This document shows positions 738 through 51,169 of a stretch of DNA of 52,053 bases, one piece after another; the first letter of the stretch is position 1, and every line of letters starts with the position of its first letter. Below the pieces are notes generated by a model. The model was not told the DNA's origin, made no database searches, and saw nothing but the letters and a program-made list of their open reading frames with translations. The translations under genes were made by a program, and so were the position numbers. Source of the DNA: a virus (taxonomy: Duplodnaviria; Caudoviricetes); IMG/VR virus record IMGVR_UViG_3300033552_000012, positions 1 through 52,053 of that record. One strand, 5' to 3'.

Positions 738-766
738 GGTTATAGCCAATAGTTATATTCCAGCTT
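738..766 (+). other. Left terminal half-site of the array (attI/secondary-site-like ATAG^TT)
   Basis: GTTATATTCCAGCTT at 752 pairs with the right arm of cassette 1 (1010-1025) but has no upstream AAC hairpin. Confidence 0.6.
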
Positions 767-800
767 CGAGCAACTTTCTGGCGAAAGGTACTATTGCTTT

Positions 801-986
801 TTATTTACGCTTCTTTTTCTTTGAAATAAGGTGTGTCATTTTGTTTCTAATTTTCTTGTATTCAATATTTATTTCTGCTTTATACATCATAATATCATTT
901 GCATTACTTATACCCATAGGAACTATTACGGTAGAATAACTTGAAATAGTAATTCCTCTTTCTTTTCTTTCGTCGATTGGTTGCAT
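801..986 (-). CDS. Cassette 1 protein (contains ERKERGITISS)
   Basis: 61 aa ORF between arms 752 and 1025. Confidence 0.7.
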   Translation of the reverse strand: MQPIDERKERGITISSYSTVIVPMGISNANDIMMYKAEINIEYKKIRNKMTHLISKKKKRK

Positions 987-1021
987 AATATTTTATTTTA
1001 TCAGTCAAAAAGCCGAGAATA

Positions 1022-1152
1022 TAACATATGATACAATAGATTTTCGGCATTTTTGATTATTGATTTATCTGTCTGTACTTGTTATTATTTGTAATGGCCA
1101 GAAAGTATAGTTCTTGGCCATTCCGAAAAACCTCCCGTATCATAAGCCGTTA
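1022..1152 (+). repeat. attC-like hairpin site S1 (131 bp)
   Basis: TAAC-a-tatgatac...ttttcgg / ccgaaaa...gtatcata-agcc-GTTA. Confidence 0.85.
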
Positions 1153-1161
1153 CAAGCAAGT

Positions 1162-1530
1162 TTAAACGAAAGTGCATTCAATCTCTTTTAGAATTAAAGT
1201 TGCATAATATTTACTATTCTCAATAGCATTTTTACCAGTAAGATTAAATTTTTTATAACTCTCAACCACTTCTTTTATAGTCTCGGTTGTTATCGTTGAA
1301 AATAAATTGGTGTCAAGTGCTTTTTCTTGCTCTTCTATAGCATCAATAATCTTTTGGCATTCCTCATAATTTTCATCAAATTCAAAATATTCTAAAACGT
1401 ATAGAACAGATAATATTCCATACATAAACATATACTTCCTATAAATTTTAGTGGAAGTCAAAAAACCTGCTTGTAACAGTGGTTTTGATAAAGCGGGTAT
1501 TGTTTTTGTGTTTAAATTATTTTTACTCAT
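1162..1530 (-). CDS. Cassette 2 hypothetical protein; starts inside the S2 loop
   Basis: 122 aa; the N-terminus IPALSKPLLQAGF is encoded by the hairpin arm. Confidence 0.75.
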   Translation of the reverse strand: MSKNNLNTKTIPALSKPLLQAGFLTSTKIYRKYMFMYGILSVLYVLEYFEFDENYEECQKIIDAIEEQEKALDTNLFSTITTETIKEVVESYKKFNLTGKNAIENSKYYATLILKEIECTFV

Positions 1531-1598
1531 TTTATTATTTAGTTTACTTGTTATTATTTGTCTTAAATTTCCCGCCTTCTCAAAGCCACGAAACGTTA
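1474..1598 (+). repeat. attC-like hairpin site S2 (125 bp)
   Basis: TAAC-a-gtggttttgataaagcggg / cccgccttctcaaagccac-gaaac-GTTA. Confidence 0.9.
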
Positions 1599-1607
1599 GC
1601 AGGAATA

Positions 1608-1856
1608 CTATAATTCGTGCATTGAAGAAATATCGTTTCGAAAATCTTTTTCGCTTAGTATTTTATTTCTACATATAAAATCAAACAAATCTTTTACGTT
1701 TTTTAAATATTCCGTGTCTTTTCCCCGATGTTTAAATAATAACCAGTTCATTGTTGGGTGTTTTTCTAGCCTAAAATTTAAAATTTTAAAAGACCTTGGT
1801 TTTGCAATAAATCCTAATTGCAACATTATTTCTGTTGTTATTTTAGTGTTTTCCAT
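1608..1856 (-). CDS. Cassette 3 hypothetical protein
   Basis: 82 aa ORF filling the cassette. Confidence 0.75.
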   Translation of the reverse strand: MENTKITTEIMLQLGFIAKPRSFKILNFRLEKHPTMNWLLFKHRGKDTEYLKNVKDLFDFICRNKILSEKDFRNDISSMHEL

Positions 1857-1890
1857 AATAATATTTTGTTGTTAAAATCCGTACTCCTGC

Positions 1891-2018
1891 TAACACACGT
1901 CTGTAGCTATTGTGGAATTAGTGATTAATTTTTAATTGGTTTTGTTTCAGTATTATTTTAGCAACTCCGAAATATTACGCATTTTTGCCCCACAACAGCA
2001 ACAGGCGTGGGAACGTTA
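1891..2018 (+). repeat. attC-like hairpin site S3 (128 bp)
   Basis: TAAC-a-cacgtctgtagctattgtgg / ccacaacagcaacaggcgtg-ggaac-GTTA. Confidence 0.9.
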
Positions 2019-2255
2019 GCGGTCATTGCAATTCGTTACATCTCCACATTTACTACAATAAGTACCTGTTCCGTTTTTATTACACATAGGCATATTCGCA
2101 TAAAGCAACGAACCGCTAACACATGATTGTAGTAATTGCATTTCTTGTGCTTGTTTAAATCCTTCCTTAAAGCCGTCTCTTTGCCCGCCAAAACTATTCG
2201 GGTTAGTACCATATCTTTTTTCCGATAACTCCTTTATTTCTTCAACTGTTTTCAT
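2016..2255 (-). CDS. Cassette 4 protein; N-terminal half encoded within S4, Cys-rich C-terminal half
   Basis: 79 aa; QLLQSCVSGSL crosses the site; the stop is the TAA of the S3 TAAC on the - strand. Confidence 0.7.
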   Translation of the reverse strand: MKTVEEIKELSEKRYGTNPNSFGGQRDGFKEGFKQAQEMQLLQSCVSGSLLYANMPMCNKNGTGTYCSKCGDVTNCNDR

Positions 2256-2313
2256 TCTTGTTTTTATTTGTGATTAATTTAATTATGCAACTACGACAAT
2301 CATGCGTCCGTTA
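2117..2313 (+). repeat. attC-like hairpin site S4 (197 bp, coding loop)
   Basis: TAAC-a-catgattgtagtaattgcat / atgcaactacgacaatcatg-cgtcc-GTTA. Confidence 0.85.
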
Positions 2314-2335
2314 GGGTGCATAGCTACATTTTTCG

Positions 2336-2575
2336 CTACGAAAACTCTTTACCGCAAATATTACACCTCAATAAGTTACTCCCAATATAACTACTTTTTT
2401 CTCTTGGATGCGTACATTCTAATATCCCCAGTTCGTAAGCTTCTGATAAAGTTAATTCTCTACCATAGGTCATTCCTTTAAATTTATATTCTAAACTTAT
2501 TGATTCTCCAATAATAAAAACTTTTGCGGTAATATTAGTTTTTCCATCTACATGCTTTATAATAATTGTTTTCAT
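2336..2575 (-). CDS. Cassette 5 gene c, zinc-ribbon-like C-terminus
   Basis: 79 aa; CTH...CNICGKEF. Confidence 0.7.
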   Translation of the reverse strand: MKTIIIKHVDGKTNITAKVFIIGESISLEYKFKGMTYGRELTLSEAYELGILECTHPREKSSYIGSNLLRCNICGKEFS

Positions 2576-2580
2576 ATATT

Positions 2581-2760
2581 TTATTTGTAAATTGTAAATT
2601 CTATTGGATGTAATTTATATGTTTTATTGTAAAACCCTTTTTTTATTTCCCATTTATCCCATTTTTTAGTATTCCAAAAAAGTATAACTATTGAGATTTT
2701 TTTTATTTTTATCTCCACAAGAGGGAAATCCATGTATCTTTCTATAACTTCTATTTTCAT
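2581..2760 (-). CDS. Cassette 5 gene b (59 aa, below the ORF-track cutoff)
   Basis: Manual translation MKIEVIERYMDFPLVEIKIKKISIVILFWNTKKWDKWEIKKGFYNKTYKLHPIEFTIYK. Confidence 0.6.
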   Translation of the reverse strand: MKIEVIERYMDFPLVEIKIKKISIVILFWNTKKWDKWEIKKGFYNKTYKLHPIEFTIYK

Positions 2761-2762
2761 AA

Positions 2763-2918
2763 CTATATTTTTTTATTATTGTCTAAATATATTTTCATAG
2801 CTGTTGTTGTAACTTTATTAATTGCGGAATGATTATTCATTGTTAACCTCATAAATTCCTCCCAATCATAATATCCGTGCTTTTCAGCCGATAAATTCTT
2901 TGTTTTATTTATTGTCAT
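2763..2918 (-). CDS. Cassette 5 gene a (51 aa)
   Basis: Manual translation MTINKTKNLSAEKHGYYDWEEFMRLTMNNHSAINKVTTTAMKIYLDNNKKI; abuts the next ATG. Confidence 0.6.
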   Translation of the reverse strand: MTINKTKNLSAEKHGYYDWEEFMRLTMNNHSAINKVTTTAMKIYLDNNKKI

Positions 2919-2953
2919 AATTATATTTATTTTTAATTACCCACTACGCACCC

Positions 2954-3080
2954 TAACACAGGTTTTGCCCCATTGCTTTTATTTGTACTTTTTTGGATTT
3001 ACGGTGTCGTATTTAAAGTTTAGTAATTTCTGATTTAACGGTGATTATCACCGCAACGATGGCAAAGCCTGATAACGTTA
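2954..3080 (+). repeat. attC-like hairpin site S5 (127 bp)
   Basis: TAAC-a-caggttttgcc...attgc / gcaac...ggcaaagcctg-ataac-GTTA. Confidence 0.9.
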
Positions 3081-3099
3081 TGCGTTATTTAACAGAACG

Positions 3100-3525
3100 T
3101 TATCGATTAACAATTCTATTTAATTGCCGTTTGCACCATTCTTCAACTTCTTGAACATTTTTAGCGGGTGAAACTCTGCTTTTATCGTTTACTTCTTTTC
3201 GATACTCGTATTGTTCTTCGTAATTTTTAGAATAAATACTTTCTAGTAATTTTTCTACTTCTGGATATTTCTTGTTGTCAAACTCTTTCCAGAACTCTTT
3301 TAAAGTCCAATACGAAACTTTCAAAGCATCTTGATTGGTTTGGCAGTAGAAGCCCTTTTTATGATTAATACAAGAAGTCGGAGAGCAACATCCAGTTTCA
3401 CCACAACTTGAACAATAAGGACAGTAAACATCGTATTTTCTATTTCTAAAAATATGTTTGAATTTAGAAAAACAACGCATAACAGCGGTTTTGAGCAAGC
3501 GGGCTTTAGTCTTTAATTCACTCAT
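3100..3525 (-). CDS. Cassette 6 Cys-rich protein; starts inside the S6 loop
   Basis: 141 aa; LLKTAVMRCF crosses the site; CPYCSSCGETGCCSPTSC. Confidence 0.75.
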   Translation of the reverse strand: MSELKTKARLLKTAVMRCFSKFKHIFRNRKYDVYCPYCSSCGETGCCSPTSCINHKKGFYCQTNQDALKVSYWTLKEFWKEFDNKKYPEVEKLLESIYSKNYEEQYEYRKEVNDKSRVSPAKNVQEVEEWCKRQLNRIVNR

Positions 3526-3603
3526 TTGGTGTGTTTTTATTATTAGTGATTAATTCAATTATTCGGTTTTATTTTTCCGCCTGCACAAAGCCACGAAACG
3601 TTA
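3480..3603 (+). repeat. attC-like hairpin site S6 (124 bp)
   Basis: TAAC-a-gcggttttgagcaagcgg / ccgcctgcacaaagccac-gaaac-GTTA. Confidence 0.9.
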
Positions 3604-3616
3604 TAGCTTATGGCTA

Positions 3617-3850
3617 TTATTGGTTAATTAAGAAGTTTTCAATATCACCCAACAATGTGTCAATTTCTCCTTTTCTTTTTAGAATTTCATCGTATTCTTT
3701 TTTAGCAAGTTCATAATCTTCACTTTCTGGTTGGTCGGCATCTTCTTGCCATTGCATTGCCTCGTCATCAACTTCATCTGAATACTCTTGTCTTTTATCT
3801 TCTAAAAACTGTTTAAATTCGTTTAATGCTTCGTCTTTTGTTGTCATCAC
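3617..3850 (-). CDS. Cassette 7 acidic helical protein
   Basis: 77 aa, D/E-rich. Confidence 0.75.
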   Translation of the reverse strand: MMTTKDEALNEFKQFLEDKRQEYSDEVDDEAMQWQEDADQPESEDYELAKKEYDEILKRKGEIDTLLGDIENFLINQ

Positions 3851-3879
3851 GTTTTGTTTTAGTTACCCACCACAAGCTA

Positions 3880-4008
3880 TAACAGCAATTTGTGGTAATT
3901 TGGGTATTAGTTATTAATTTTTTTTTTGGTCTTGTATTTGTAAAATCTGTCTTGAATCGGTACTTTAGGATTTATTTATCCCAAACTACCACAAGTTGCA
4001 GGGCGTTA
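3880..4008 (+). repeat. attC-like hairpin site S7 (129 bp)
   Basis: TAAC-a-gcaatttgtggtaatttggg / cccaaactaccacaagttgc-agggc-GTTA. Confidence 0.9.
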
Positions 4009-4275
4009 TGCAACAGTTTCAGAACGTTCTCGTTTAAAAATTTCTAAAAGTTCTGAATCTGTCTTATTTGAATATTTACCGCTTGAATCAAAACGAGTGC
4101 TTAAAAACCAATTTGCAAAATCAATAGTCTGTTTATCTACTAATTCTTCTATTTTACAAATACATTCTTCGTGATTGTAAATTCTTTTTTCTAATAAACT
4201 CTTTAATTCATTTGATAAAACCGATTGCATAACAGCCGTTTTGCTCAATGTCGGTATTGTTTTATCTTTGTCCAT
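4006..4275 (-). CDS. Cassette 8 protein; starts inside the S8 loop
   Basis: 89 aa; IPTLSKTAVMQSV crosses the site; stop lies in the S7 TAAC. Confidence 0.75.
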   Translation of the reverse strand: MDKDKTIPTLSKTAVMQSVLSNELKSLLEKRIYNHEECICKIEELVDKQTIDFANWFLSTRFDSSGKYSNKTDSELLEIFKRERSETVA

Positions 4276-4357
4276 ATTGTTTTTAATTTAATTATTAGTC
4301 TATTTTTGTTATTATCCGTGTTGAATTTTCCGCCACTAAGCAAAGCAGCGAACGTTA
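4230..4357 (+). repeat. attC-like hairpin site S8 (128 bp)
   Basis: TAAC-a-gccgttttgctcaatgtcgg / ccgccactaagcaaagcagc-gaac-GTTA. Confidence 0.9.
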
Positions 4358-4603
4358 GGGAACATCTTCCTCAACTTTGTCGCCAAAAGTTTCGTTAAAA
4401 TAATCTTCTCTTTTATCGGATACCATTTTATCCCAGCTCATGGTCATAAATCCGTCGTTCCAAGTTTCTTTTAGTTGTTGTTTTTCTTTTTCTAAAAGTT
4501 TCTCCGCTTCAATTTGACAAAATCTTAAAAGTGTATTTGAAATATCACTTTCTTTTCGTTTGTCTTTAATAATTTCTATTAATTCTTGCAATGCTGTTTT
4601 CAT
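4355..4603 (-). CDS. Cassette 9 hypothetical protein (MKTALQELIE...EKEKQQ...DYFNETF type)
   Basis: 82 aa; stop lies in the S8 TAAC. Confidence 0.75.
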   Translation of the reverse strand: MKTALQELIEIIKDKRKESDISNTLLRFCQIEAEKLLEKEKQQLKETWNDGFMTMSWDKMVSDKREDYFNETFGDKVEEDVP

Positions 4604-4642
4604 AATTTTATTTTTAATTTATTAGTCAAAAAGCCGAGAATA

Positions 4643-4697
4643 TAACATATGCTTGTAAAAATGGCTTTATCGCCACTATTACAAGCGTCCACCGTTA
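4643..4697 (+). repeat. attC-like hairpin site S9 (55 bp, minimal, apparently chimeric)
   Basis: TAAC-at-atgcttgtaaaaatggc / gccactattacaagcgt-ccacc-GTTA. Confidence 0.85.
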
Positions 4698-4919
4698 TAC
4701 GTCAGCTTCTTTGGAATCGTCAGAAACATAATCTACATAAGGATATGTTTTATTTATAAAAGTTACAGTATAACTACAAGTTATACTGTTGCATTTATGT
4801 GGATATTGGGGTGGATGAGTTGTAAAACATTGTCCAGTTGGTCTTAAATAACCATCTTCACATTCAGGGCATTTAAAGTCTATTTTTACTGTTTTTACTT
4901 GTTTAATTTCTTGTGGCAT
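4695..4919 (-). CDS. Cassette 10 zinc-ribbon protein
   Basis: 74 aa; CPEC...HKC...C; stop lies in the S9 TAAC. Confidence 0.75.
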   Translation of the reverse strand: MPQEIKQVKTVKIDFKCPECEDGYLRPTGQCFTTHPPQYPHKCNSITCSYTVTFINKTYPYVDYVSDDSKEADV

Positions 4920-4966
4920 AATTTTTTATTTTTTGATTAATATTTATTTTAACAAAGCCGAACGCA

Positions 4967-5037
4967 TAACAGCAGTTTTGACTTACCGCCAAAATCTCGC
5001 TGGTACAGAGGTGGCATTTCAAGGCTGCGAAACGTTA
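4967..5037 (+). repeat. attC-like hairpin site S10 (71 bp)
   Basis: TAAC-a-gcagttttgacttaccgcc / ggtggcatttcaaggctgc-gaaac-GTTA. Confidence 0.85.
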
Positions 5038-5049
5038 GTGATAATACAC

Positions 5050-5298
5050 CTATCGCAATTGCATTTTGTTGTAAAACTCAAATTTATTATCCGTAAGACA
5101 TTCGTATTTTATGAGTTTCCATCCGTCTTTATTTGCAATTAATAACATTTCATTATCAATGTACTTCATATCTTTTTCATCCCAACTATTTGAGAATTTA
5201 CCATCATTAATATTTAGCCAGCAATAGCGAAAAGTACTATCACTAACAGCAGTCTTGAGAGATTGTGGTATCGGTGTGTTTTTGTCTATATTTTCCAT
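5050..5298 (-). CDS. Cassette 11 protein; starts inside the S11 loop
   Basis: 82 aa; IPQSLKTAVSDST crosses the site. Confidence 0.75.
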   Translation of the reverse strand: MENIDKNTPIPQSLKTAVSDSTFRYCWLNINDGKFSNSWDEKDMKYIDNEMLLIANKDGWKLIKYECLTDNKFEFYNKMQLR

Positions 5299-5372
5299 AA
5301 TTTAATTATTAATGTTTATTTGTTGTTATTTGTCTTGAATAATCCACAACCTTGCAAGGTTGCGAAACGTTA
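5244..5372 (+). repeat. attC-like hairpin site S11 (129 bp)
   Basis: TAAC-a-gcagtcttgagagattgtgg / ccacaaccttgcaaggttgc-gaaac-GTTA. Confidence 0.9.
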
Positions 5373-5384
5373 TAAGTAATACTA

Positions 5385-5534
5385 TTATCTCTTTTCCATA
5401 ATTCCATATATCTCATTGTAAGCGTAATTTTCGCTAAAATCATTCAATGCATCTACAATGTCTTCCGCATCTACTGTTATGGTGTAATAACCATATTCTG
5501 TGTGTTCATAAAACACGATAAATTCTTTTTCCAT
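5385..5534 (-). CDS. Cassette 12 small acidic protein (49 aa)
   Basis: Manual translation MEKEFIVFYEHTEYGYYTITVDAEDIVDALNDFSENYAYNEIYGIMEKR. Confidence 0.65.
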   Translation of the reverse strand: MEKEFIVFYEHTEYGYYTITVDAEDIVDALNDFSENYAYNEIYGIMEKR

Positions 5535-5559
5535 AATTACTTTTATTTTAAATTACCCA

Positions 5560-5592
5560 TTTCGAAAAACCACGCATAGTTGCGAGACGTTA
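5560..5592 (+). repeat. Degenerate terminal site S12 (right half only)
   Basis: ...gttgc-gagac-GTTA resembles the S11 end gttgc-gaaac-GTTA; no AAC arm upstream. Confidence 0.55.
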
Positions 5593-6067: not shown

Positions 6068-6838
6068 TTATTTGTTGATTAGTTCAATTGCGGCTAAAAC
6101 TCTTTCGGTCAGAAAATCCTTGTCTGCCTGTGGGACTTCAAAACGGATGATATTTACACTATCTATTCCGCTTTCTTTATAAACATAAGGAAGTTCGCCT
6201 TCTTTGGCATATTCTACTTTCCAATATGGATTGTCAAGAGTAGTGTTATATGCTTTTATTTCAGCTAATTCTTCTAGGTAAGGCATAAAAATGATCAACT
6301 CGGCATATTTAGAGTTTAAAATAATAGAGTTGGAAACTAATTGCCAATAATATTTTTCGCCTTCTTTGGATTGTTTTCTAATTTGCTGAATTACTTCATC
6401 CCCGTTAAAACTTTCTTTTTTAGTAACAGTTAAACCATCAAAATCATAAATAAATTTAATCAAATTATAAAAGGCTTTCCTGGTTAAAGGACATTTTATA
6501 TCAGTGATTGTATCACAACAATCATTTATAATTACCTGACCGTCAGGAGTACCGCACCATTCTTGAATTTCAGGATGTGGATAGGTTATTTCAGACTGCA
6601 TAATGTAAGAAAGAGGTAATTTATCGTGTACAATAATCTCACACAGTTTACCCCAGCTAAAAGCCTTTACATCACTTTCCAATTCCAATTTATGCTTAAA
6701 AAAACGCTCCATTATACATTCGTCTACATAAGTGTAAAAAGGCGCACCAAAACTATCCTTTGTCCTTCCGTTGGAAACTAAAGAAACGATTTCAGATGAG
6801 GTGATATTTCCGATTCTAATATTTGATAATTCACTCAT
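6068..6838 (-). CDS. YqaJ/lambda-exonuclease-like 5'-3' exonuclease
   Basis: RIGNITSSE, WGK.CE, GTPDG, DIKCP, YYWQL motifs; adjacent to an annealase. Confidence 0.8.
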   Translation of the reverse strand: MSELSNIRIGNITSSEIVSLVSNGRTKDSFGAPFYTYVDECIMERFFKHKLELESDVKAFSWGKLCEIIVHDKLPLSYIMQSEITYPHPEIQEWCGTPDGQVIINDCCDTITDIKCPLTRKAFYNLIKFIYDFDGLTVTKKESFNGDEVIQQIRKQSKEGEKYYWQLVSNSIILNSKYAELIIFMPYLEELAEIKAYNTTLDNPYWKVEYAKEGELPYVYKESGIDSVNIIRFEVPQADKDFLTERVLAAIELINK

Positions 6839-7493
6839 GGTTCACATTTTTTAATAATTTAATTGCTTTTTCGTAACTTAATTTTTCTTTAGTGTCTATA
6901 ATTCTTTCGTAGTGCAATTGCTCCTCAGGACTGATGAATTCTTTTTTGATTTCGTAAATTTGTTTGAGTTCCGGCAAAGTATTTTCCAGTGCCACTTTCA
7001 CTTCTTTAAAATCTTCTTTATTATAAATATCATTAGCAATACCGATTTCGGCAGCACATTTTTTTAATGCGTCAGTAGATGCAGCTTTTAAATCATTTCC
7101 TATGGATAAAGGAATCTTATCAATTCCTTTTTGTATTTCATCTTGATTCTGCTTGCGATACATAATATCCTTGTTACCAAATTGCATTTTTATAATTGTT
7201 TTTCCTGCACTACGACACGTTAAACGCCCTTTTACAATTGCTTCACCGTGCAATATTTTTTCGTCTATAATTTCAAAATCCCAATCCCAACCAAACATTA
7301 AGTTCAGGCATTTTTTAACATAACCTCCCGTAACATATTCCCAAGTACCTCCGCCCTTCGCTGGACGTTGTTTTACGTACTGTTTTGGCGTTCTTTTCAG
7401 TATTAAAGCTAATTGGTTCGCATTTAAATTATTGTCCTCTACAAGGCTTAAATCACTAGCTTCAATTAAAGCTAATTCGTTATTGTTTTCCAT
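6831..7493 (-). CDS. Rad52/Sak-like single-strand annealing recombinase
   Basis: RPAKGGGTWEYV...LNLMFGWDW...LKAASTDALKKCAAEIGIANDIY is a Rad52/22-type pattern. Confidence 0.85.
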   Translation of the reverse strand: MENNNELALIEASDLSLVEDNNLNANQLALILKRTPKQYVKQRPAKGGGTWEYVTGGYVKKCLNLMFGWDWDFEIIDEKILHGEAIVKGRLTCRSAGKTIIKMQFGNKDIMYRKQNQDEIQKGIDKIPLSIGNDLKAASTDALKKCAAEIGIANDIYNKEDFKEVKVALENTLPELKQIYEIKKEFISPEEQLHYERIIDTKEKLSYEKAIKLLKNVNHE

Positions 7494-44212: not shown

Positions 44213-45409
44213 ATGAGTAAATGGAGAATCTATGACGATGTCATTAAAACTATATTGCTGAATAATGAGGAATTATCAGACTGGAAGGTTTCTCAGATTG
44301 TCCTTAAAGCAGAAAGACCAACAACAGAATCAGACTTACTTCGGACTTATATCAAAAGGAATCGAAAAAGGCTATTAGATAAATTTGAAGGCAATTACAC
44401 CGCTACAGACGCGCTCGACATCGACAATACCACGGTAAAACACATGTGGGTAAAGAATAAAGAAGCTTCTTTATTTGTCAAAAACCCAAATTTTATTCCT
44501 CAGACAGAATCTGAAACCGACAACTTCAAGACTTTAAGCGATGCTTTAATTTATGACTTGAAGAACTACTCCCCCATTTTTAAAAAAATAGAATATGTAG
44601 AAAGTACTGATTCCTATTTATTAGTAGTTGACCCCGCAGATGTTCATGTAGGTAAATTATGTAGTGATTTTGAAGTTGGACAATCTTACAATAATCAAAT
44701 AGCGGTACAAAGAGCATTAGAAGGGGTTCGTGGATTATTGCAAAAAGCAAAAGGGTTTCATATAGACCAAATACTCTTTATAGGAGGAAACGATATTTTA
44801 CATATTGACAGCCCTGCCAGAAAAACAGCAAATGGAACACCACAAGACACGGACGGTATGTGGCACTCTAATTTTCTGATAGCCAAACAACTTTATGTTG
44901 ATATTTTAGAAATCCTTCTTGCCGTGGCTCCGGTTCATTTTGATTTTAATCCAAGCAATCACGACTATACCAACGGTTTCTTTTTATCTCAGGTTATAGA
45001 GGCTTATTTTAGACATTGCAAAGAACTTACTTTCAATACTTCAATCGCTCACCGAAAATACTACAAATACCATAAAAATCTTATCGGAACTACCCACGGA
45101 GACGGTGCAAAAATGACTGACTTACCGATGCTTATGGCTACTGATAAACCTGTTGAATGGGCTGAAACAACACACCGATATGTTTATGTACATCATTTAC
45201 ACCACAAATGGAGTAAAGATATTTTTAGTGTTTGTGTAGAGGGATTAAGAAGTCCAAGCGGTACGGATTCCTGGCATCACCAAAAAGGATTTGAACACGC
45301 ACCGAAAGCGGTTGAAGGATTTTTGCACAGTAAAAATAACGGACAAATCGCCCGTTTAACCCATATTTTTAGCTTATTATTCATTGTTTTTTCGTATATT
45401 ACAGTATGA
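44213..45409 (+). CDS. Calcineurin-like metallophosphoesterase
   Basis: DVHVG, GNDILH, SNHD, HGD, HHLHH metal-binding motifs. Confidence 0.8.
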   Translation: MSKWRIYDDVIKTILLNNEELSDWKVSQIVLKAERPTTESDLLRTYIKRNRKRLLDKFEGNYTATDALDIDNTTVKHMWVKNKEASLFVKNPNFIPQTESETDNFKTLSDALIYDLKNYSPIFKKIEYVESTDSYLLVVDPADVHVGKLCSDFEVGQSYNNQIAVQRALEGVRGLLQKAKGFHIDQILFIGGNDILHIDSPARKTANGTPQDTDGMWHSNFLIAKQLYVDILEILLAVAPVHFDFNPSNHDYTNGFFLSQVIEAYFRHCKELTFNTSIAHRKYYKYHKNLIGTTHGDGAKMTDLPMLMATDKPVEWAETTHRYVYVHHLHHKWSKDIFSVCVEGLRSPSGTDSWHHQKGFEHAPKAVEGFLHSKNNGQIARLTHIFSLLFIVFSYITV

Positions 45410-46044
45410 TAGGAATATATAAAATTACAAATCCAAACGGAAGAGTTTACATAGGGCAAAGTATCAATATAGAAAGACGTTTTGATTCTTATTCAAGATG
45501 TGATTGCAAAGGACAAACCAAAATATACAACTCGATAAAGAAACATGGGTTTTTAAAGCATAAGGTAGAAGTTCTTGTTTATTGTGATATATCTGAATTA
45601 AATGAAAAAGAGGCTTATTATATAGAATTATATAATTCAAATAGCAGTTCTGATTTAAATTGCGGAGTTCCTAGATATTTAAATAAATCAGGATATTTAT
45701 CAGAAGAGACAAAAGCTAAAATGACATTAGCACAAACAGGCAATAAAAAATGGCTAGGTAAAAAACATAAAGAATCTACTAAGATTAAAATGTCAATAGC
45801 TCAGATGGGAAAAAAAGTAAGTAAAGAAACTTGTCTTAAAATATCTGAATCTAAAAAAGGTATTAATCCAAAGCATTTTGTAGAAATTCATCCAAACGCT
45901 AAAATAGTTTTAAATTTATCAAATGGAGTTTTTTATAAAAGTTTAAAAGAAGCTTCTTTAGATTATAATATTAATTACAATACATTAAAAAGTTATCTAA
46001 GTGGTAACATAAAAAAAAATAAAAGTGATTTAATTTACGCGTAA
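45406..46044 (+). CDS. GIY-YIG homing endonuclease with NUMOD3-like repeats
   Basis: GIYKITN..GRVYIGQS; repeated SEETKAKM/KESTKIKMS/SKETCLKIS. Confidence 0.9.
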   Translation: MIGIYKITNPNGRVYIGQSINIERRFDSYSRCDCKGQTKIYNSIKKHGFLKHKVEVLVYCDISELNEKEAYYIELYNSNSSSDLNCGVPRYLNKSGYLSEETKAKMTLAQTGNKKWLGKKHKESTKIKMSIAQMGKKVSKETCLKISESKKGINPKHFVEIHPNAKIVLNLSNGVFYKSLKEASLDYNINYNTLKSYLSGNIKKNKSDLIYA

Positions 46045-50530: not shown

Positions 50531-51169
50531 TTATTTAATTTTTGATTGTTTTATTTCTATTCCTTTTAATTTAGAATCATGTCTTATTATTTTATAACAT
50601 TTATTAATAAAATCTTTAATATCTAAAGATCCTTTCATTTGGTTGCATGTTTTGCATGACGAAGTAATATTTACGGGAGTGTTTAAACCCCCTTTTGATA
50701 TTGGTATTAGGTGCTCTAAATGCCATATTTTACTACTGATAGGTTCCGAACAATAGTAACATCTAAAAGAACTTCTTTTTAAACAATTCAAAACATCATC
50801 AGATGTTATTGTTTCGATATAATTAACTCTTCTATTATTTGAGTTTGCTTTTTCGCTGCATTTATATTTAAACATATTAATAACGTCTAATTCTTCATCT
50901 TTAGAAACGTACCTTATTTTTATATTTTTAATAGGAATTCTATCATTTTCAATTTTAAATGATGTTTTATAAATAGGCGTTTTTAAGTCAACAAAGTATT
51001 CAATCATTAATAAAACTAAATTTAATTTTAAATCTTCTATTTTAACTCTAGGAACTCCGCTAATTATTTTTAATGGAATAATTTCTTCTTTAAGTCCAGA
51101 AGTTCTAAAACAATACCCTTCTGATGAAATGAAATAACGTGATGTGTTTTTTAGCTGTTTAACCATCAA
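50531..51169 (-). CDS. HNH endonuclease
   Basis: CYYC...HLEHLIPISKGGLNTPVNITSSCKTCNQMK. Confidence 0.88.
   Translation of the reverse strand: MMVKQLKNTSRYFISSEGYCFRTSGLKEEIIPLKIISGVPRVKIEDLKLNLVLLMIEYFVDLKTPIYKTSFKIENDRIPIKNIKIRYVSKDEELDVINMFKYKCSEKANSNNRRVNYIETITSDDVLNCLKRSSFRCYYCSEPISSKIWHLEHLIPISKGGLNTPVNITSSCKTCNQMKGSLDIKDFINKCYKIIRHDSKLKGIEIKQSKIK

Follow-up and report, generated by a model that had tools for sequence, protein, structure and literature searches.

The question raised by this locus is what a row of small genes with foldable DNA sites in between represents in a Flavobacterium phage, and whether these sites form a class of their own. The row lies at 752-5592 of the window, by which we mean the whole 52,053-nt stretch of DNA that was analysed. 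Reading and computation together gave 11 complete sites on the + strand, of the form TAAC-A-imperfect 20-bp stem-loop-5-nt bulge-GTTA, and the small ORFs between them are all on the minus strand (Table 1); no Pfam family was found in the 10 cassette ORFs tested. Our own site scanner, which needs exact TAAC and GTTA and from which the site sets used below derive, recovered 10 of these 11 + strand sites and one unrelated match, with no matches on the - strand of the window; 20 shuffled windows gave 0-2 matches each (mean ~0.65), and no site of the same grammar was found outside the array in the rest of the window. We consider that the array probably belongs to an integron-like but non-canonical cassette system of Flavobacterium phages and, having no recombinase of its own, corresponds to a CALIN, the name given to clusters of attC sites that have no integrase.

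Table 1. Features of the array and its neighbours (window positions; ↓, junction)
Feature	Position	Strand	Description
Whole array	752..5592	-	~12 units: TTA-arm, minus-strand small ORF(s), arm-TAAC-hairpin-G; from ORF list, arms, ORF strand/start
Terminal hairpin-less site	744..768	+	..CCAATA↓GTTATATTCCAGC, GTTA at 752; array end; resembles attI-like site of related loci
S1	1022..1152	+	TAAC 1022 / GTTA 1149
S2	1474..1598	+	TAAC 1474 / GTTA 1595; bulge GAAAC
S3	1891..2018	+	TAAC 1891 / GTTA 2015
S4	2117..2313	+	TAAC 2117 / GTTA 2310; loop 189 nt
S5	2954..3080	+	TAAC 2954 / GTTA 3077; short stem, right arm with 1-nt indel
S6	3480..3603	+	TAAC 3480 / GTTA 3600
S7	3880..4008	+	TAAC 3880 / GTTA 4005
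S8	4230..4357	+	TAAC 4230 / GTTA 4354; bulge 4 nt
S9	4643..4697	+	TAAC 4643 / GTTA 4694; short, interior 47 nt, spacer 2 nt
S10	4967..5037	+	TAAC 4967 / GTTA 5034; interior 63 nt
S11	5244..5372	+	TAAC 5244 / GTTA 5369
Decayed last site	5535..5592	+	GTTA 5589 after GAGAC; without intact TAAC or stem; sequence reading
Array ORFs, first half	801..986, 1162..1530, 1608..1856, 2016..2255, 2336..2575 + 2581..2760 + 2763..2918	-	
Array ORFs, second half	3100..3525, 3617..3850, 4006..4275, 4355..4603, 4695..4919, 5050..5298, 5385..5534	-	
Exonuclease	6068..6838		Adjoins array
Rad52-like annealing protein	6831..7493		Adjoins array

The non-canonical site grammar noticed in the first-pass annotation was confirmed in the window, with corrections to its counts. 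Position 11 of the GTT arm, counted from the G, is A in 12 of the 13 definable arms rather than in all 13, the arm at 5589 having T. Unit ends pair over ~14 bp: 10 of 11 consecutive arm pairs are complementary and A faces C in all 10, and the eleventh pair (flanking 4354..4646), also claimed as matched, is unmatched, since the 4643 site has as its left arm a copy of the 1022 arm. Six complementary pairs, and not seven as first given, are ungapped (10 bp, the A/C, then 3-4 bp), and four carry one extra base, the number first given. Inside the hairpin, the 15th base after AAC is invariably A facing C, in 11 complete sites instead of the 12 reported, the 2954 site needing a 1-nt indel; an A directly follows AAC in 11/11 sites, and the unpaired stretch before GTT is 4-5 nt long (4-6 nt had been claimed). 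In the S2 stem, for example, position 5 is T.G and position 11 is mismatched, and the A/C stands at position 14, which is the 15th base after AAC.

Both mismatches were also conserved in larger alignments. Among 207 unique arm pairs, 132 are complementary, against only 2.7% of shuffled partners, and within these position 11 is A in 132/132, facing C in 124 and A-T paired in none. An independent set anchored on the recombinase discussed below has A at position 11 in 241/245 arms, with A/C at the same position in 155/166 ungapped arm matches, and A as the 15th base in 278/284 sites (A/C in 220/284). The non-complementary arm pairs (75/207 and, in the independent set, 57/245) count against the integron-like reading, as does the L073 orthologue of cassette 1, in which the inner arm has been exchanged. 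As proposed earlier for the neighbouring pairs, pairing is maintained by covariation; most stem positions use 3-4 Watson-Crick pair types with 90-100% pairing, and the stem-half score is 16.2 for real sites versus 4.3 when the two halves come from different sites. Both A/C mismatches persist when 568 related sites are pooled into a consensus, which has a two-box design: the element GTT-W-N6-A forms the outer R box and recurs, inverted, as the inner L box, each time with its mismatch at position 11. The R box is GTTA-N6-A paired with C-N6-TAAC, and the L box is (G)nT-W-N6-A paired with C-N6-W-A(G)C, where AGC often stands in place of AAC and so produces a T.G wobble at the 6th base; one strand separates the boxes by 4 nt and the other by 8 nt (3 paired, 5 bulged). 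The twofold relation of the outer and inner mismatches, first described as lying around the bubble, is more extensive, the inner box inverting the outer box, and this geometry fits two protomers of one recombinase. The non-Watson-Crick pair at position 11 reads A/C on the + strand and G.T on the ORF-sense (-) strand. The sites may act as folded single-stranded DNA; the DNA folding energies are weak (z from +0.28 to -3.7 for 7 sites on both strands), which counts against the integron-like reading. The minimum-energy fold misses the stem for S11 and for the minus strand of S10, and the weakly folding hairpins have unstructured loops of 50-190 nt.

The limits of the mobile unit were obtained by comparison of related phages. 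Two clean natural indels define it as TTA-arm-gene-arm-TAAC-hairpin-G, inserted at G↓TT: one separates L082 from L089, and in the other the cultured filifjonk9-1 carries, relative to mumin6-1, a cassette exactly at a terminal-type site, with just 8 nt shared at the junction. The hairpin and the TAAC-side flank were inherited together 16 times versus 1, and the far flank was co-inherited 55-61 times versus 1. Because this evidence places the boundary on the GTTA side, analogy with integrons would make the ORF-sense (-) strand the one exchanged; both A/C mismatches read as G.T wobbles there. Repeats bound two further indels, the hairpin being repeated in L146/L158 and a 42-nt sequence in mumin/filifjonk, so that homologous recombination would account for these two equally well. 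No trustworthy excision joint was found among the contigs examined, which counts against the integron-like reading.

These repeat-bounded indels would be expected if modules were shuffled by homologous recombination, the hairpins, UTR, and arms being regulatory elements (translation starts, terminators, mRNA end-pairing) and the Rad52-like protein and exonuclease of the phage itself swapping genes between co-infecting phages. The model for such a process is the PeSL (promoter-early stem-loop) cassettes of T4-type phages, which are small accessory genes of the early region with repeated stem-loop modules between them; these modules shuffle between phages, but the exchange is thought to be homologous, and to our knowledge they have no AAC/GTT two-box design, complementary unit ends, or dedicated recombinase. 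Genes for both proteins adjoin the array here, and this counts against the integron-like reading. Moreover, the same hairpin modules are met again elsewhere, each as a discrete TAAC..GTTA unit between flanks that are unrelated (window positions: S2 alone in L074, 1474-1598; S6 in L083, 3478-3603, and L129, 3480-3607; S7 in L072, 3879-4009; S8 in L060, 4228-4357; S11 in L051, 5244-5372), and the S1 left arm with its 5'UTR module, AAAAGCCGAGAATATAAC, is common to S9 and 53 IMG/VR contigs, across which this 18-mer precedes many different genes. The longest ORF is on the opposite strand in 430/445 units, and 128 of these 430 begin inside the hairpin, as do the first 45 codons of minus-strand ORF 2016..2255, which are encoded in the S4 loop. 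Nevertheless, shuffling explains neither the unit-specific complementarity of the ends with its invariant non-paired A at position 11, nor the inverted two-box design around AAC/GTT, nor the clean mumin/filifjonk insertion, nor the strict linkage and polarity of arrays relative to a recombinase, described next, and we regard it as unlikely.

The window, a complete phage record, has no tyrosine recombinase by PF00589 or TIGR02249 match. The first-pass annotation had looked to a tyrosine recombinase for these sites, and a candidate family was indeed found in related phage contigs, where a gene for a 265-275-aa protein stands at one array end with constant polarity. This protein has PF00589 and PF13495 domains, conserved RKHRH-Y active-site residues, and XerA and IntI4 as nearest folds; it falls in the Xer/IntI clade but scores below every NCBIfam cut-off, and against IntI4 (2A3V) it shows two aligned stretches, with 34 aa in place of the 82 of IntI4, and is without the IntI-specific insert. 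In 62 loci fetched by the recombinase alone, each with at least 1500 nt upstream, the array is upstream and in one orientation in 59, with 340 sites upstream versus 9 downstream, and the downstream 2 kb of 57 loci fall into 38 unrelated clusters (backbones). A terminal hairpin-less, attI-like site lies 36-53 nt upstream of the recombinase ATG, with the motif ..ATATA..WA↓GTTA-N6-A in 37/50 distinct recombinase-proximal rows, and its conserved half could be the promoter of the recombinase gene. The recombinase is present in only 9/48 array-bearing records, which counts against the integron-like reading, and in only 1/14 of those at least 90% complete; the array-bearing cultured phages 6H, mumin, and filifjonk gave no recombinase match.

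We propose that a unit, which on the + strand consists of a TTA-arm, 1-3 opposite-strand small genes, arm-TAAC, an imperfect hairpin of 47-189 nt, and then G, forms a two-box site when its two ends are joined and combined with the hairpin. Two protomers of the small Xer/IntI-clade recombinase would read the box geometry and the position-11 irregularity, not the sequence, and the conserved AAC/GTT would be where they exchange strands. A unit would enter either between other units or next to the recombinase gene, at G↓TT of the terminal site that has no hairpin (..ATATAATA↓GTTA). For the window array the enzyme may be supplied in trans, from a phage or prophage in the same cell, or the host homologue, which is 40-48% identical, may do the work; alternatively, the array may be a recently inherited record of such events.

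The same recombinase might instead act on double-stranded junctions, the hairpin interior being only cargo or regulatory, as with the pdif sites of Acinetobacter plasmids, where host XerC/XerD bind a 28-bp duplex whose sequence is conserved. The pdif modules are likewise discrete gene modules bounded by Xer-type sites, with mutually inverted module ends, but they are not known to have a hairpin interior or unit-specific covarying arms. The TAAC-side junction does show the classical core geometry, in which two arms in inverted orientation flank 6 bp of central sequence; an example is arm-TAA↓C-ANNN-G↓TT-W-N6-A, the overlap being 6 bp. The Xer-like character of the recombinase, its missing insert, and the weak DNA folding would also suit such sites. 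However, the unit boundaries lie on the GTTA side, at which a duplex would have a spacing of ~11 bp, and covarying arm-arm and stem-stem complementarity would have no role, which makes duplex sites distinctly unlikely. It is also conceivable, though very unlikely in our view, that the recombinase is a mere lysogeny integrase of some phages and that the array is a stretch of accessory genes with paired ends that function in RNA, G.U-containing stems bracketing each cistron for processing or stability. Such a role would fit the absence of the recombinase from most complete array phages, the possible promoter in the terminal motif, and the ORF-sense strand, on which all ORFs lie and both conserved irregularities are G.U-compatible; but neither strand is clean, because the ORF-sense L box has a C/A mismatch where the + strand has T.G, no Rfam family matched, unit-precise indels at GTT are DNA events, and the one-sided, one-polarity arrays beside the recombinase on unrelated backbones are not accounted for.

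In the descriptions of Nivina 2016 and Escudero 2016, integrons resemble the phage system in their arrays of small-gene units, each with one foldable imperfect-palindrome site having R and L boxes, a variable terminal loop, and a conserved AAC/GTT crossover with the junction at G↓TT; in sequence-poor, structure-rich recognition, with unpaired features setting the two strands apart; in an Xer-related tyrosine recombinase at one array end beside a hairpin-less insertion site; and in the many arrays without an integrase. The two also differ. The phage sites have no extrahelical bases and instead one mismatch or wobble at position 11 per box, their outer arms are cassette-specific and ~14 bp long (the attC consensus being the 7-bp RYYYAAC), and their spacer is 4 versus 8 nt and partly paired, whereas that of canonical attC is 5-6 nt on each arm (Nivina 2016). 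Furthermore, the phage ORFs run opposite to the site and often begin within the loop, the recombinase gene is co-oriented with them, the recombinase lacks the I2 insert of IntI, and the carriers here are Flavobacterium phages. That a bacterial integron was the source of the array, as a plain CALIN on which canonical IntI acts, is extremely doubtful: its AAC...GTT triplets, variable loop, mutually complementary unit ends, and G↓TT junction are integron-like and CALINs have been reported from virulent phages, one of which infects Polaribacter (Qi et al. 2023, PMC9892861), but by the Nivina 2016 description the unpaired spacer (1 versus 5 nt) and the purine at arm position 5 (only 36% of sites) do not fit, the ORFs are reversed, the associated recombinase has no IntI insert, and neither the window nor any of five genomes from Flavobacterium or its relatives gave a TIGR02249 match over cut-off.

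The virulent-phage CALINs are, like this array, phage-borne and integrase-less with N6_N4 DNA methyltransferase cargo, and one of the phages that carry them, Polaribacter P12002L, has a host from the Flavobacteriaceae; they have 2-3 sites by canonical attC models, and IntI1 recombined 5/6 sites (Qi et al. 2023, PMC9892861). Here there are at least 10 sites, with a different grammar and their own recombinase family, and the main text of that paper does not mention Flavobacterium. A further phage precedent is CTX-phi, whose attP(+) folds as a single strand into a mimic of a two-arm Xer site, irregular in its central region, and is recombined by host XerCD (Escudero 2016). The enzyme is not encoded by that phage itself, as we propose for the window, but there the whole genome enters dif, whereas here many sites delimit single genes and related phages encode the enzyme.

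The suggestion of a folded, structure-read, and possibly distinct class of site is thus supported in part, by the non-attC grammar, the covariation, the dyad mismatches, and the recombinase family beside arrays. No published description of such a phage cassette system was found in the literature searched. If phages do carry a relative of the integron that has a site design of its own and, in related phages, a small recombinase, this would bear on the origin of integrons.

The window, one entire IMG/VR virus record of 52,053 bases, was rated 100% complete by CheckV and carries genes for the small and large terminase subunits, portal-like and tail proteins, NinG and MazG, as well as a Rad52-like annealing protein, an exonuclease, and HNH and GIY-YIG endonucleases. 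Its DNA matches among cultured phages were to Flavobacterium phages only, and a megablast comparison of the structural genes with cultured phages gave no match. Every ORF from 752 to 5592 lies on the minus strand, and these ORFs are parted by 11 complete sites, which read on the plus strand as arm-TAAC-A-stem-loop-stem-(4-5 nt)-GTTA-arm. The right arm of one site was the reverse complement of the next site's left arm in 10 of 11 consecutive pairs, six of them forming 10 bp, an A facing C and another 3-4 bp, and the other four having one extra base beside the same A/C; the remaining pair, 4354..4646, has no match, since the 4643 site has the same left arm as the 1022 site. The first-pass annotation had described A at arm position 11 (counted from the G of GTT) in all 13 arms and facing C in 11, together with an A facing C at the 15th base after AAC in 12 sites. 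The pattern is as described, and several of the counts differ from ours by one: 12 of 13 arms have A at position 11, the A/C occurs in 10 of 11 pairs, and the inner A/C is found in 11/11 complete stems. A T.G pair stands at the 6th base after AAC in 8 of the 11 sites. Our site scanner, which demands exact TAAC and GTTA, an interior of 28-260 nt and an ungapped stem score of at least 10 or 11, recovered 10 of the 11 sites plus one unrelated hit, and shuffled windows gave 0-2 hits each; no additional site of this grammar was found elsewhere in the window. A scan of the whole window with Rfam 15 returned no family at gathering thresholds, the AACGTTA motif by itself was not enriched in the window (17 vs 13 expected), and none of 10 cassette ORFs tested could be assigned to a Pfam family. 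The two free-standing endonuclease genes listed in the table are apparently unrelated to the array.

The same grammar was found in dozens of IMG/VR contigs and also in Flavobacterium genomes or MAGs. The first site set is not independent of the window, because its loci were fetched through the adjoining exonuclease or two window 18-mers; among its 207 unique consecutive arm pairs, 100 matched ungapped, 32 matched with an extra base and 75 were unmatched, compared with 2.7% matches for shuffled arm partners. Position 11 was A in 132 of 132 matched pairs, facing C in 124 and forming A-T in 0, and the 15th base was A/C in 180 of the 230 unique sites belonging to the five commonest spacer/bulge classes, the only classes tabulated. 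The second set was fetched only through the recombinase and is therefore free of ascertainment on site sequence. There, A directly follows AAC in 280 of 284 sites and the 7th base forms T-A in 274. An A stands at the 15th base of 278 sites, where its partner is C in 220 and T in 17; of 245 arms, 241 have A at position 11, and A/C was seen in 155 of 166 ungapped matches. The A/C mismatches are thus conserved in both larger alignments, and this part of the earlier proposal stands. Unmarked stem positions were 90-100% Watson-Crick with three or four pair types, and stem halves swapped between sites did not pair (mean score 4.3 vs 16.2 in real sites). Against the integron-like reading, between about a quarter and a third of the consecutive arm pairs had no match, depending on the set.

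Some further observations concern the arms. A third arm class, GTTA-N6-ACCGCC paired with GTTA-N6-T-ACCAC, has an extra T and then a G facing T rather than A/C; it was seen in eight related loci (L133, L020, L025, L032, L051, L054, L061 and L062) and is scored as unmatched by our arm classifier. The 18-mer arm AAAAGCCGAGAATATAAC occurs at 1008-1025 and 4629-4646 of the window and in 53 IMG/VR contigs (L020-L072), where it precedes many different genes, is joined to their ATG by a conserved leader of about 25 nt, and adjoins over 25 different hairpins. A 47-nt 3' module from the GTTA at 752 is the partner of this arm and is 91-96% conserved in at least 8 loci. In L073, positions 4547-4898 hold a 91% identical orthologue of the window cassette at 1139-1489, which keeps the right arm GTTACAAGCAAG and has ..TGCCACTAAC in place of ..TGCTTGTAAC on the left; because this left inner arm was exchanged, at a point 3-7 nt outside TAAC, the two arms no longer pair, which also counts against the integron-like reading.

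The pooled consensus of 568 sites reads G1 T2 T3 A4 t5 N4 a10 A11 t12 in the outer right arm and g n T W N5 a A t in the inner left strand from the 5th base after AAC. The L box inside the hairpin therefore repeats the outer R box in inverted orientation, and position 11 of each holds an unpaired A. The strand facing the inner GTT-like triplet usually reads AGC, not AAC, which accounts for the T.G wobble. Between the triplets there are 4 nt (A + NNN) on one strand and 8 nt (NNN + a 5-nt bulge) on the other; the last base of the bulge is C in 92% of sites, and AAC is a frequent ending. In many sites the junction on the GTTA side is thus the 6-bp palindrome AAC↓GTT (arrows mark junctions), and the crossover can be located no more precisely than C↓G↓TTA. 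Read on the ORF-sense strand, both A/C mismatches are G.T wobbles and the T.G is a C/A mismatch, so that the strands are not equivalent and neither is fully paired. Folding of the hairpins as free DNA was weak (z from +0.28 to -3.7 for 7 sites on both strands), and the minimum-energy fold missed the stem on at least one strand for two of the 7 sites. These sites are putative substrates that would recombine, probably as folded single strands; the earlier reading, a folded single-stranded substrate recognized through its structure by a dimeric recombinase, was right in substance, while the form of the symmetry and the probable reactive strand had to be corrected.

The limits of the mobile unit could be read from linkage. 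Hairpin modules recur alone, with limits at exactly TAAC and GTTA, and for hairpins at least 85% identical between loci the TAAC-side flank was co-conserved in 16 cases vs 1 for the GTTA side; this count leaves out sites carrying the ascertained 18-mer arm as well as four duplicate loci (L009, L048, L062 and L092). In the independent set, the near arm was co-conserved 108 times on the TAAC side vs 31 on the GTTA side, and the far flank 55-61 times vs 1. Two near-identical contigs, L082 and L089, differ by exactly TTA-arm...arm-TAAC-hairpin-G, a unit whose arms match with A/G at position 11, and in the cultured phage filifjonk9-1 one unit (gp004) sits inserted at the terminal GTTA of mumin6-1, with flanks 100% and 99.6% identical and 8 nt common at the junction. 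The junctions of both clean indels are at GTTA. A canonical ORF-then-attC unit, in which the hairpin would be part of the GTTA-side gene, was considered first and rejected on these linkage counts together with the two clean indels. Homologous recombination driven by the adjoining Rad52-like/exonuclease pair could also move modules, and it would explain equally well two other indels, which are bounded by repeats and uninformative on the unit. The public sequencing data for the window consist of contigs only, and the listed joints, with sides of 20-26 nt, were left unused; among the contig loose ends listed, 9 of 24 (there are 64 more) lay at most 3 nt from a TAAC/GTTA boundary, which is a hint only. 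One public run, perhaps from the sample of origin, held 97% of the window's words and five held 5-7%, and there were no RNA runs among the runs listed for the window.

With the unit defined as TTA...hairpin-G, every ORF falls inside one unit. Of 445 units, 430 have a longest ORF that runs opposite to the site, and 128 of these 430 ORFs start within the hairpin loop; the loop-starting ORFs run through the stem and GTTA into the unit (those of the window are listed in the table), and the stop codon of a cassette ORF is often the TAA of TAAC. The Bacteroidetes -7 box is TAnnTTTG, and inspection of the hairpin loops by eye gave no convincing match to it. Cassette ORFs are directed toward the recombinase end. 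A recombinase, a terminal site and units each ending in a hairpin thus amount to integron polarity with the genes reversed.

Loop-starting ORFs of the array and free-standing endonuclease genes in the window
Feature	Position	Part in hairpin	Strand	Basis or reading
ORF starting in hairpin loop	2016..2255	2121-2255	-	sequence
ORF starting in hairpin loop	3100..3525	3484-3525	-	sequence
ORF starting in hairpin loop	4006..4275	4234-4275	-	sequence
ORF starting in hairpin loop	5050..5298	5248-5298	-	sequence
ORF also read as loop-starting	1162..1530	1478-1530	-	own reading
GIY-YIG/NUMOD3 endonuclease gene, free-standing	45406-46044		+	probably homing endonuclease
HNH endonuclease gene, free-standing	50531-51169		-	probably homing endonuclease

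When the ORFs of 54 array-bearing loci were clustered into families, the third commonest family (8/54 loci) was a tyrosine recombinase of about 267 aa with PF00589 and PF13495, the latter an Xer/IntI-type N-terminal domain, and in 7 loci it directly adjoins the array. Its closest models were XerA, IntI, XerD and XerC, all scoring below the curated cut-offs: 116-157 bits in two stretches against TIGR02249, the integron-integrase model (cut-off 265), 158-180 against NF040815 (cut-off 220), 142-161 against XerC (cut-off 335) and 132-152 against XerD (cut-off 330). The alignment to V. cholerae IntI4 falls into two blocks and has 34 residues where IntI4 has 82; the phage recombinase is therefore without the IntI-specific insert. 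Six members share all of the catalytic residues R, K, H, R, H and Y, and a structure model (mean pLDDT 75.9, built on a 6-row alignment and used for fold search only) gave XerA (5HXY) and IntI4 (2A3V) as the nearest solved folds. In a reverse test, 184 relatives were found and 80 loci were fetched by the recombinase protein, 62 of which had at least 1500 nt upstream; at least one upstream site was present in 59 of the 62 and at least two in 55, all on the strand opposite to the gene. There were 340 upstream sites vs 9 downstream; another 62 were called upstream on the other strand, many of them as mirror detections. When the 2 kb following the recombinase gene were compared, 57 loci gave 38 unrelated clusters, and the array is therefore the gene's only constant neighbour. 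A hairpin-less site, ..ATATA(T/G)WWA↓GTTA-N6-A, was found 36-53 nt upstream of the recombinase start codon in 37 of 50 distinct rows; this terminal motif may instead be a promoter. Seven of the recombinase-array loci (L141, L151, L159, L166, L167, L190 and L200) are 'viral' contigs of 210-362 kb, which may be pieces of host chromosome with prophages or very large phages.

Many arrays lack this gene. It is present in 9 of 48 array-bearing records and in 1 of the 14 that are at least 90% complete, and tblastn did not find it in the cultured array phages 6H, mumin6-1 and filifjonk9-1; the best matches in cultured phages were 35-42% identical integrases of Polaribacter and Cellulophaga phages. In the window, no PF00589 tyrosine recombinase was found even at E <= 1 and the TIGR02249 model gave no match; its array end at 752 (..AATA↓GTTA) is of the terminal type, and the gene next to it is not a recombinase. 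The window itself would encode nothing that acts on its array. Flavobacterium carries a single-copy homologue of 345-348 aa, 40-48% identical, in 73 of 201 genomes (E <= 1e-50), which has a conserved N-terminal extension of about 75 aa (M.W.AK..KH...RIAV.FEK..., loci L214-L225) and passes NF040815 ('tyrosine recombinase/integron integrase') with 222-226 bits against the cut-off of 220. No array was found beside this host homologue, with at most one weak site within +/-1.5 kb. We infer that the window array may be served in trans by the host homologue or by a co-resident phage, for which CTX-phi, recombined by the host XerCD, is a precedent (Escudero 2016). A host chromosomal array was considered and rejected: the F. 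caseinilyticum array, the one examined (307.5-312 kb of the host contig G001:C12), is embedded in what looks like a prophage, containing YopX genes and large ORFs of tail type, and PF00589 had no match on that contig. Cultured phage-host pairs with such arrays are available, namely vB_FspS_mumin and filifjonk on Flavobacterium sp. LMO6/LMO9, and phage 6H. Isolates of one cultured Polaribacter phage, Freya_1, _8 and _10 (L226-L229), differ in having 0, 7 or 10 small co-oriented ORFs immediately upstream of an integrase 35% identical to the recombinase; they become homologous again 67 nt ahead of the integrase start codon, close to a TAAC. Our scanner found no TAAC/GTTA-type hairpin sites in that region, which may therefore be a diverged sister system.

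The sites share with attC the AAC/GTT crossover triplets, a two-box fold and a variable loop. In attC, the R box reads RYYYAAC/GTTRRRY, extrahelical bases lie near L'', each arm has a 5-6 nt spacer, and the terminal structure is variable (Nivina 2016). TAAC and GTTA are present at 11/11 window sites, and their invariance in the larger sets is by construction, because the scanner demands both. The R box here is unlike the 7-bp RYYYAAC/GTTRRRY of attC: in the 568 sites position 5 is T in 55% and G in 32% (purine 36%), and the A at position 4 in 100% is imposed by the scanner. R-box pairing extends over about 14 bp and is unit-specific, against 7 bp of consensus in attC. Whereas the L'' arm of attC has an extrahelical G and, six base pairs away, a T, the dominant classes of phage sites need none and have in their place the A/C at the 15th base (220/284) and the T.G at the 6th. 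The spacers are 1-2 nt after AAC and 4-6 nt before GTT, or 4 vs 8 nt (3 of them paired) when counted between the box triplets, compared with 5-6 nt in each attC arm. The sites thus depart from the published attC in consensus, extrahelical bases and spacer. Compared with a Xer-type (dif/IMEX) site, which has two inverted arms of about 11 bp around a 6-8-bp centre and is bound by Xer-family recombinases, the two-box layout and the 6-nt path on one strand fit, and the recombinase is of the Xer/IntI clade; the other strand has an 11-nt path, and the boxes here arise only by folding.

The platform as a whole is integron-like in having a recombinase gene at one array end, a hairpin-less insertion site beside it and a fixed polarity, from which the window array differs in that it has the terminal-type site at 752 and no recombinase. 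Integron cassettes have their ORF in the same direction as the attC top strand, with expression from Pc at the attI end, whereas the ORFs are reversed here; IntI has the additional I2 domain, while the array-linked phage recombinase lacks it and fails TIGR02249. We regard the system as one of the integron kind and place it outside the integron family itself. Full-text searches of the one library of papers covered found no published description of it. CALINs reported in virulent phages rest on canonical models, have 2-3 sites and no linked enzyme (Qi 2023, PMC9892861), and the words integron, cassette, hairpin, palindrom- and inverted do not occur in the available text of the mumin phage paper (Nilsson 2020). 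Standard integron finders rely on the IntI insert and on canonical attC models and would therefore probably miss such arrays. Many phage cassette arrays would in that case have gone uncounted, as IMG/VR alone holds the 184 recombinase relatives and the 53 contigs with one 18-mer arm.

We tentatively consider, as a serious possibility rather than the expected outcome, that this is a second, phage-borne integron, with an I2-less Xer-like recombinase and folded single-stranded sites. Strand and box identity would then be marked by the position-11 mismatches and the asymmetric bulge instead of extrahelical bases. The I2 domain of IntI and the extrahelical bases of attC each seem useless alone, a chicken-and-egg problem, and a viral origin of integrons has been speculated (Escudero 2016). 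A phage-borne integron of this type could represent the pre-I2 stage in living form or have been invented independently, and either way would give substance to that speculation; a phage platform of folded sites and an I2-less Xer-like enzyme would make the question of integron origin testable. Sites read by structure, with their sequence free, are also attractive as recombination tools.

The cargo consists mostly of small proteins of unassigned family and orphan methyltransferases. The commonest ORF family is an N6_N4 DNA methyltransferase, found in 19 of 54 array loci, with four copies in mumin6-1 (L231, 1649-6268) and five in filifjonk9-1 (L234); in another related locus, L078, a methyltransferase unit at 2218-2967 lies between the recombinase gene and the first hairpin site. 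The most economical role that we infer is that of a common, reshuffled supply of early genes, anti-restriction genes among them, which, if the phage-borne integron is real, would be a cassette market of anti-restriction methyltransferases and small genes common to Flavobacterium phages. In the mumin phages, methyltransferase presence tracks plating efficiency on a second host (Nilsson 2020), and the system may therefore drive fast host-range adaptation.
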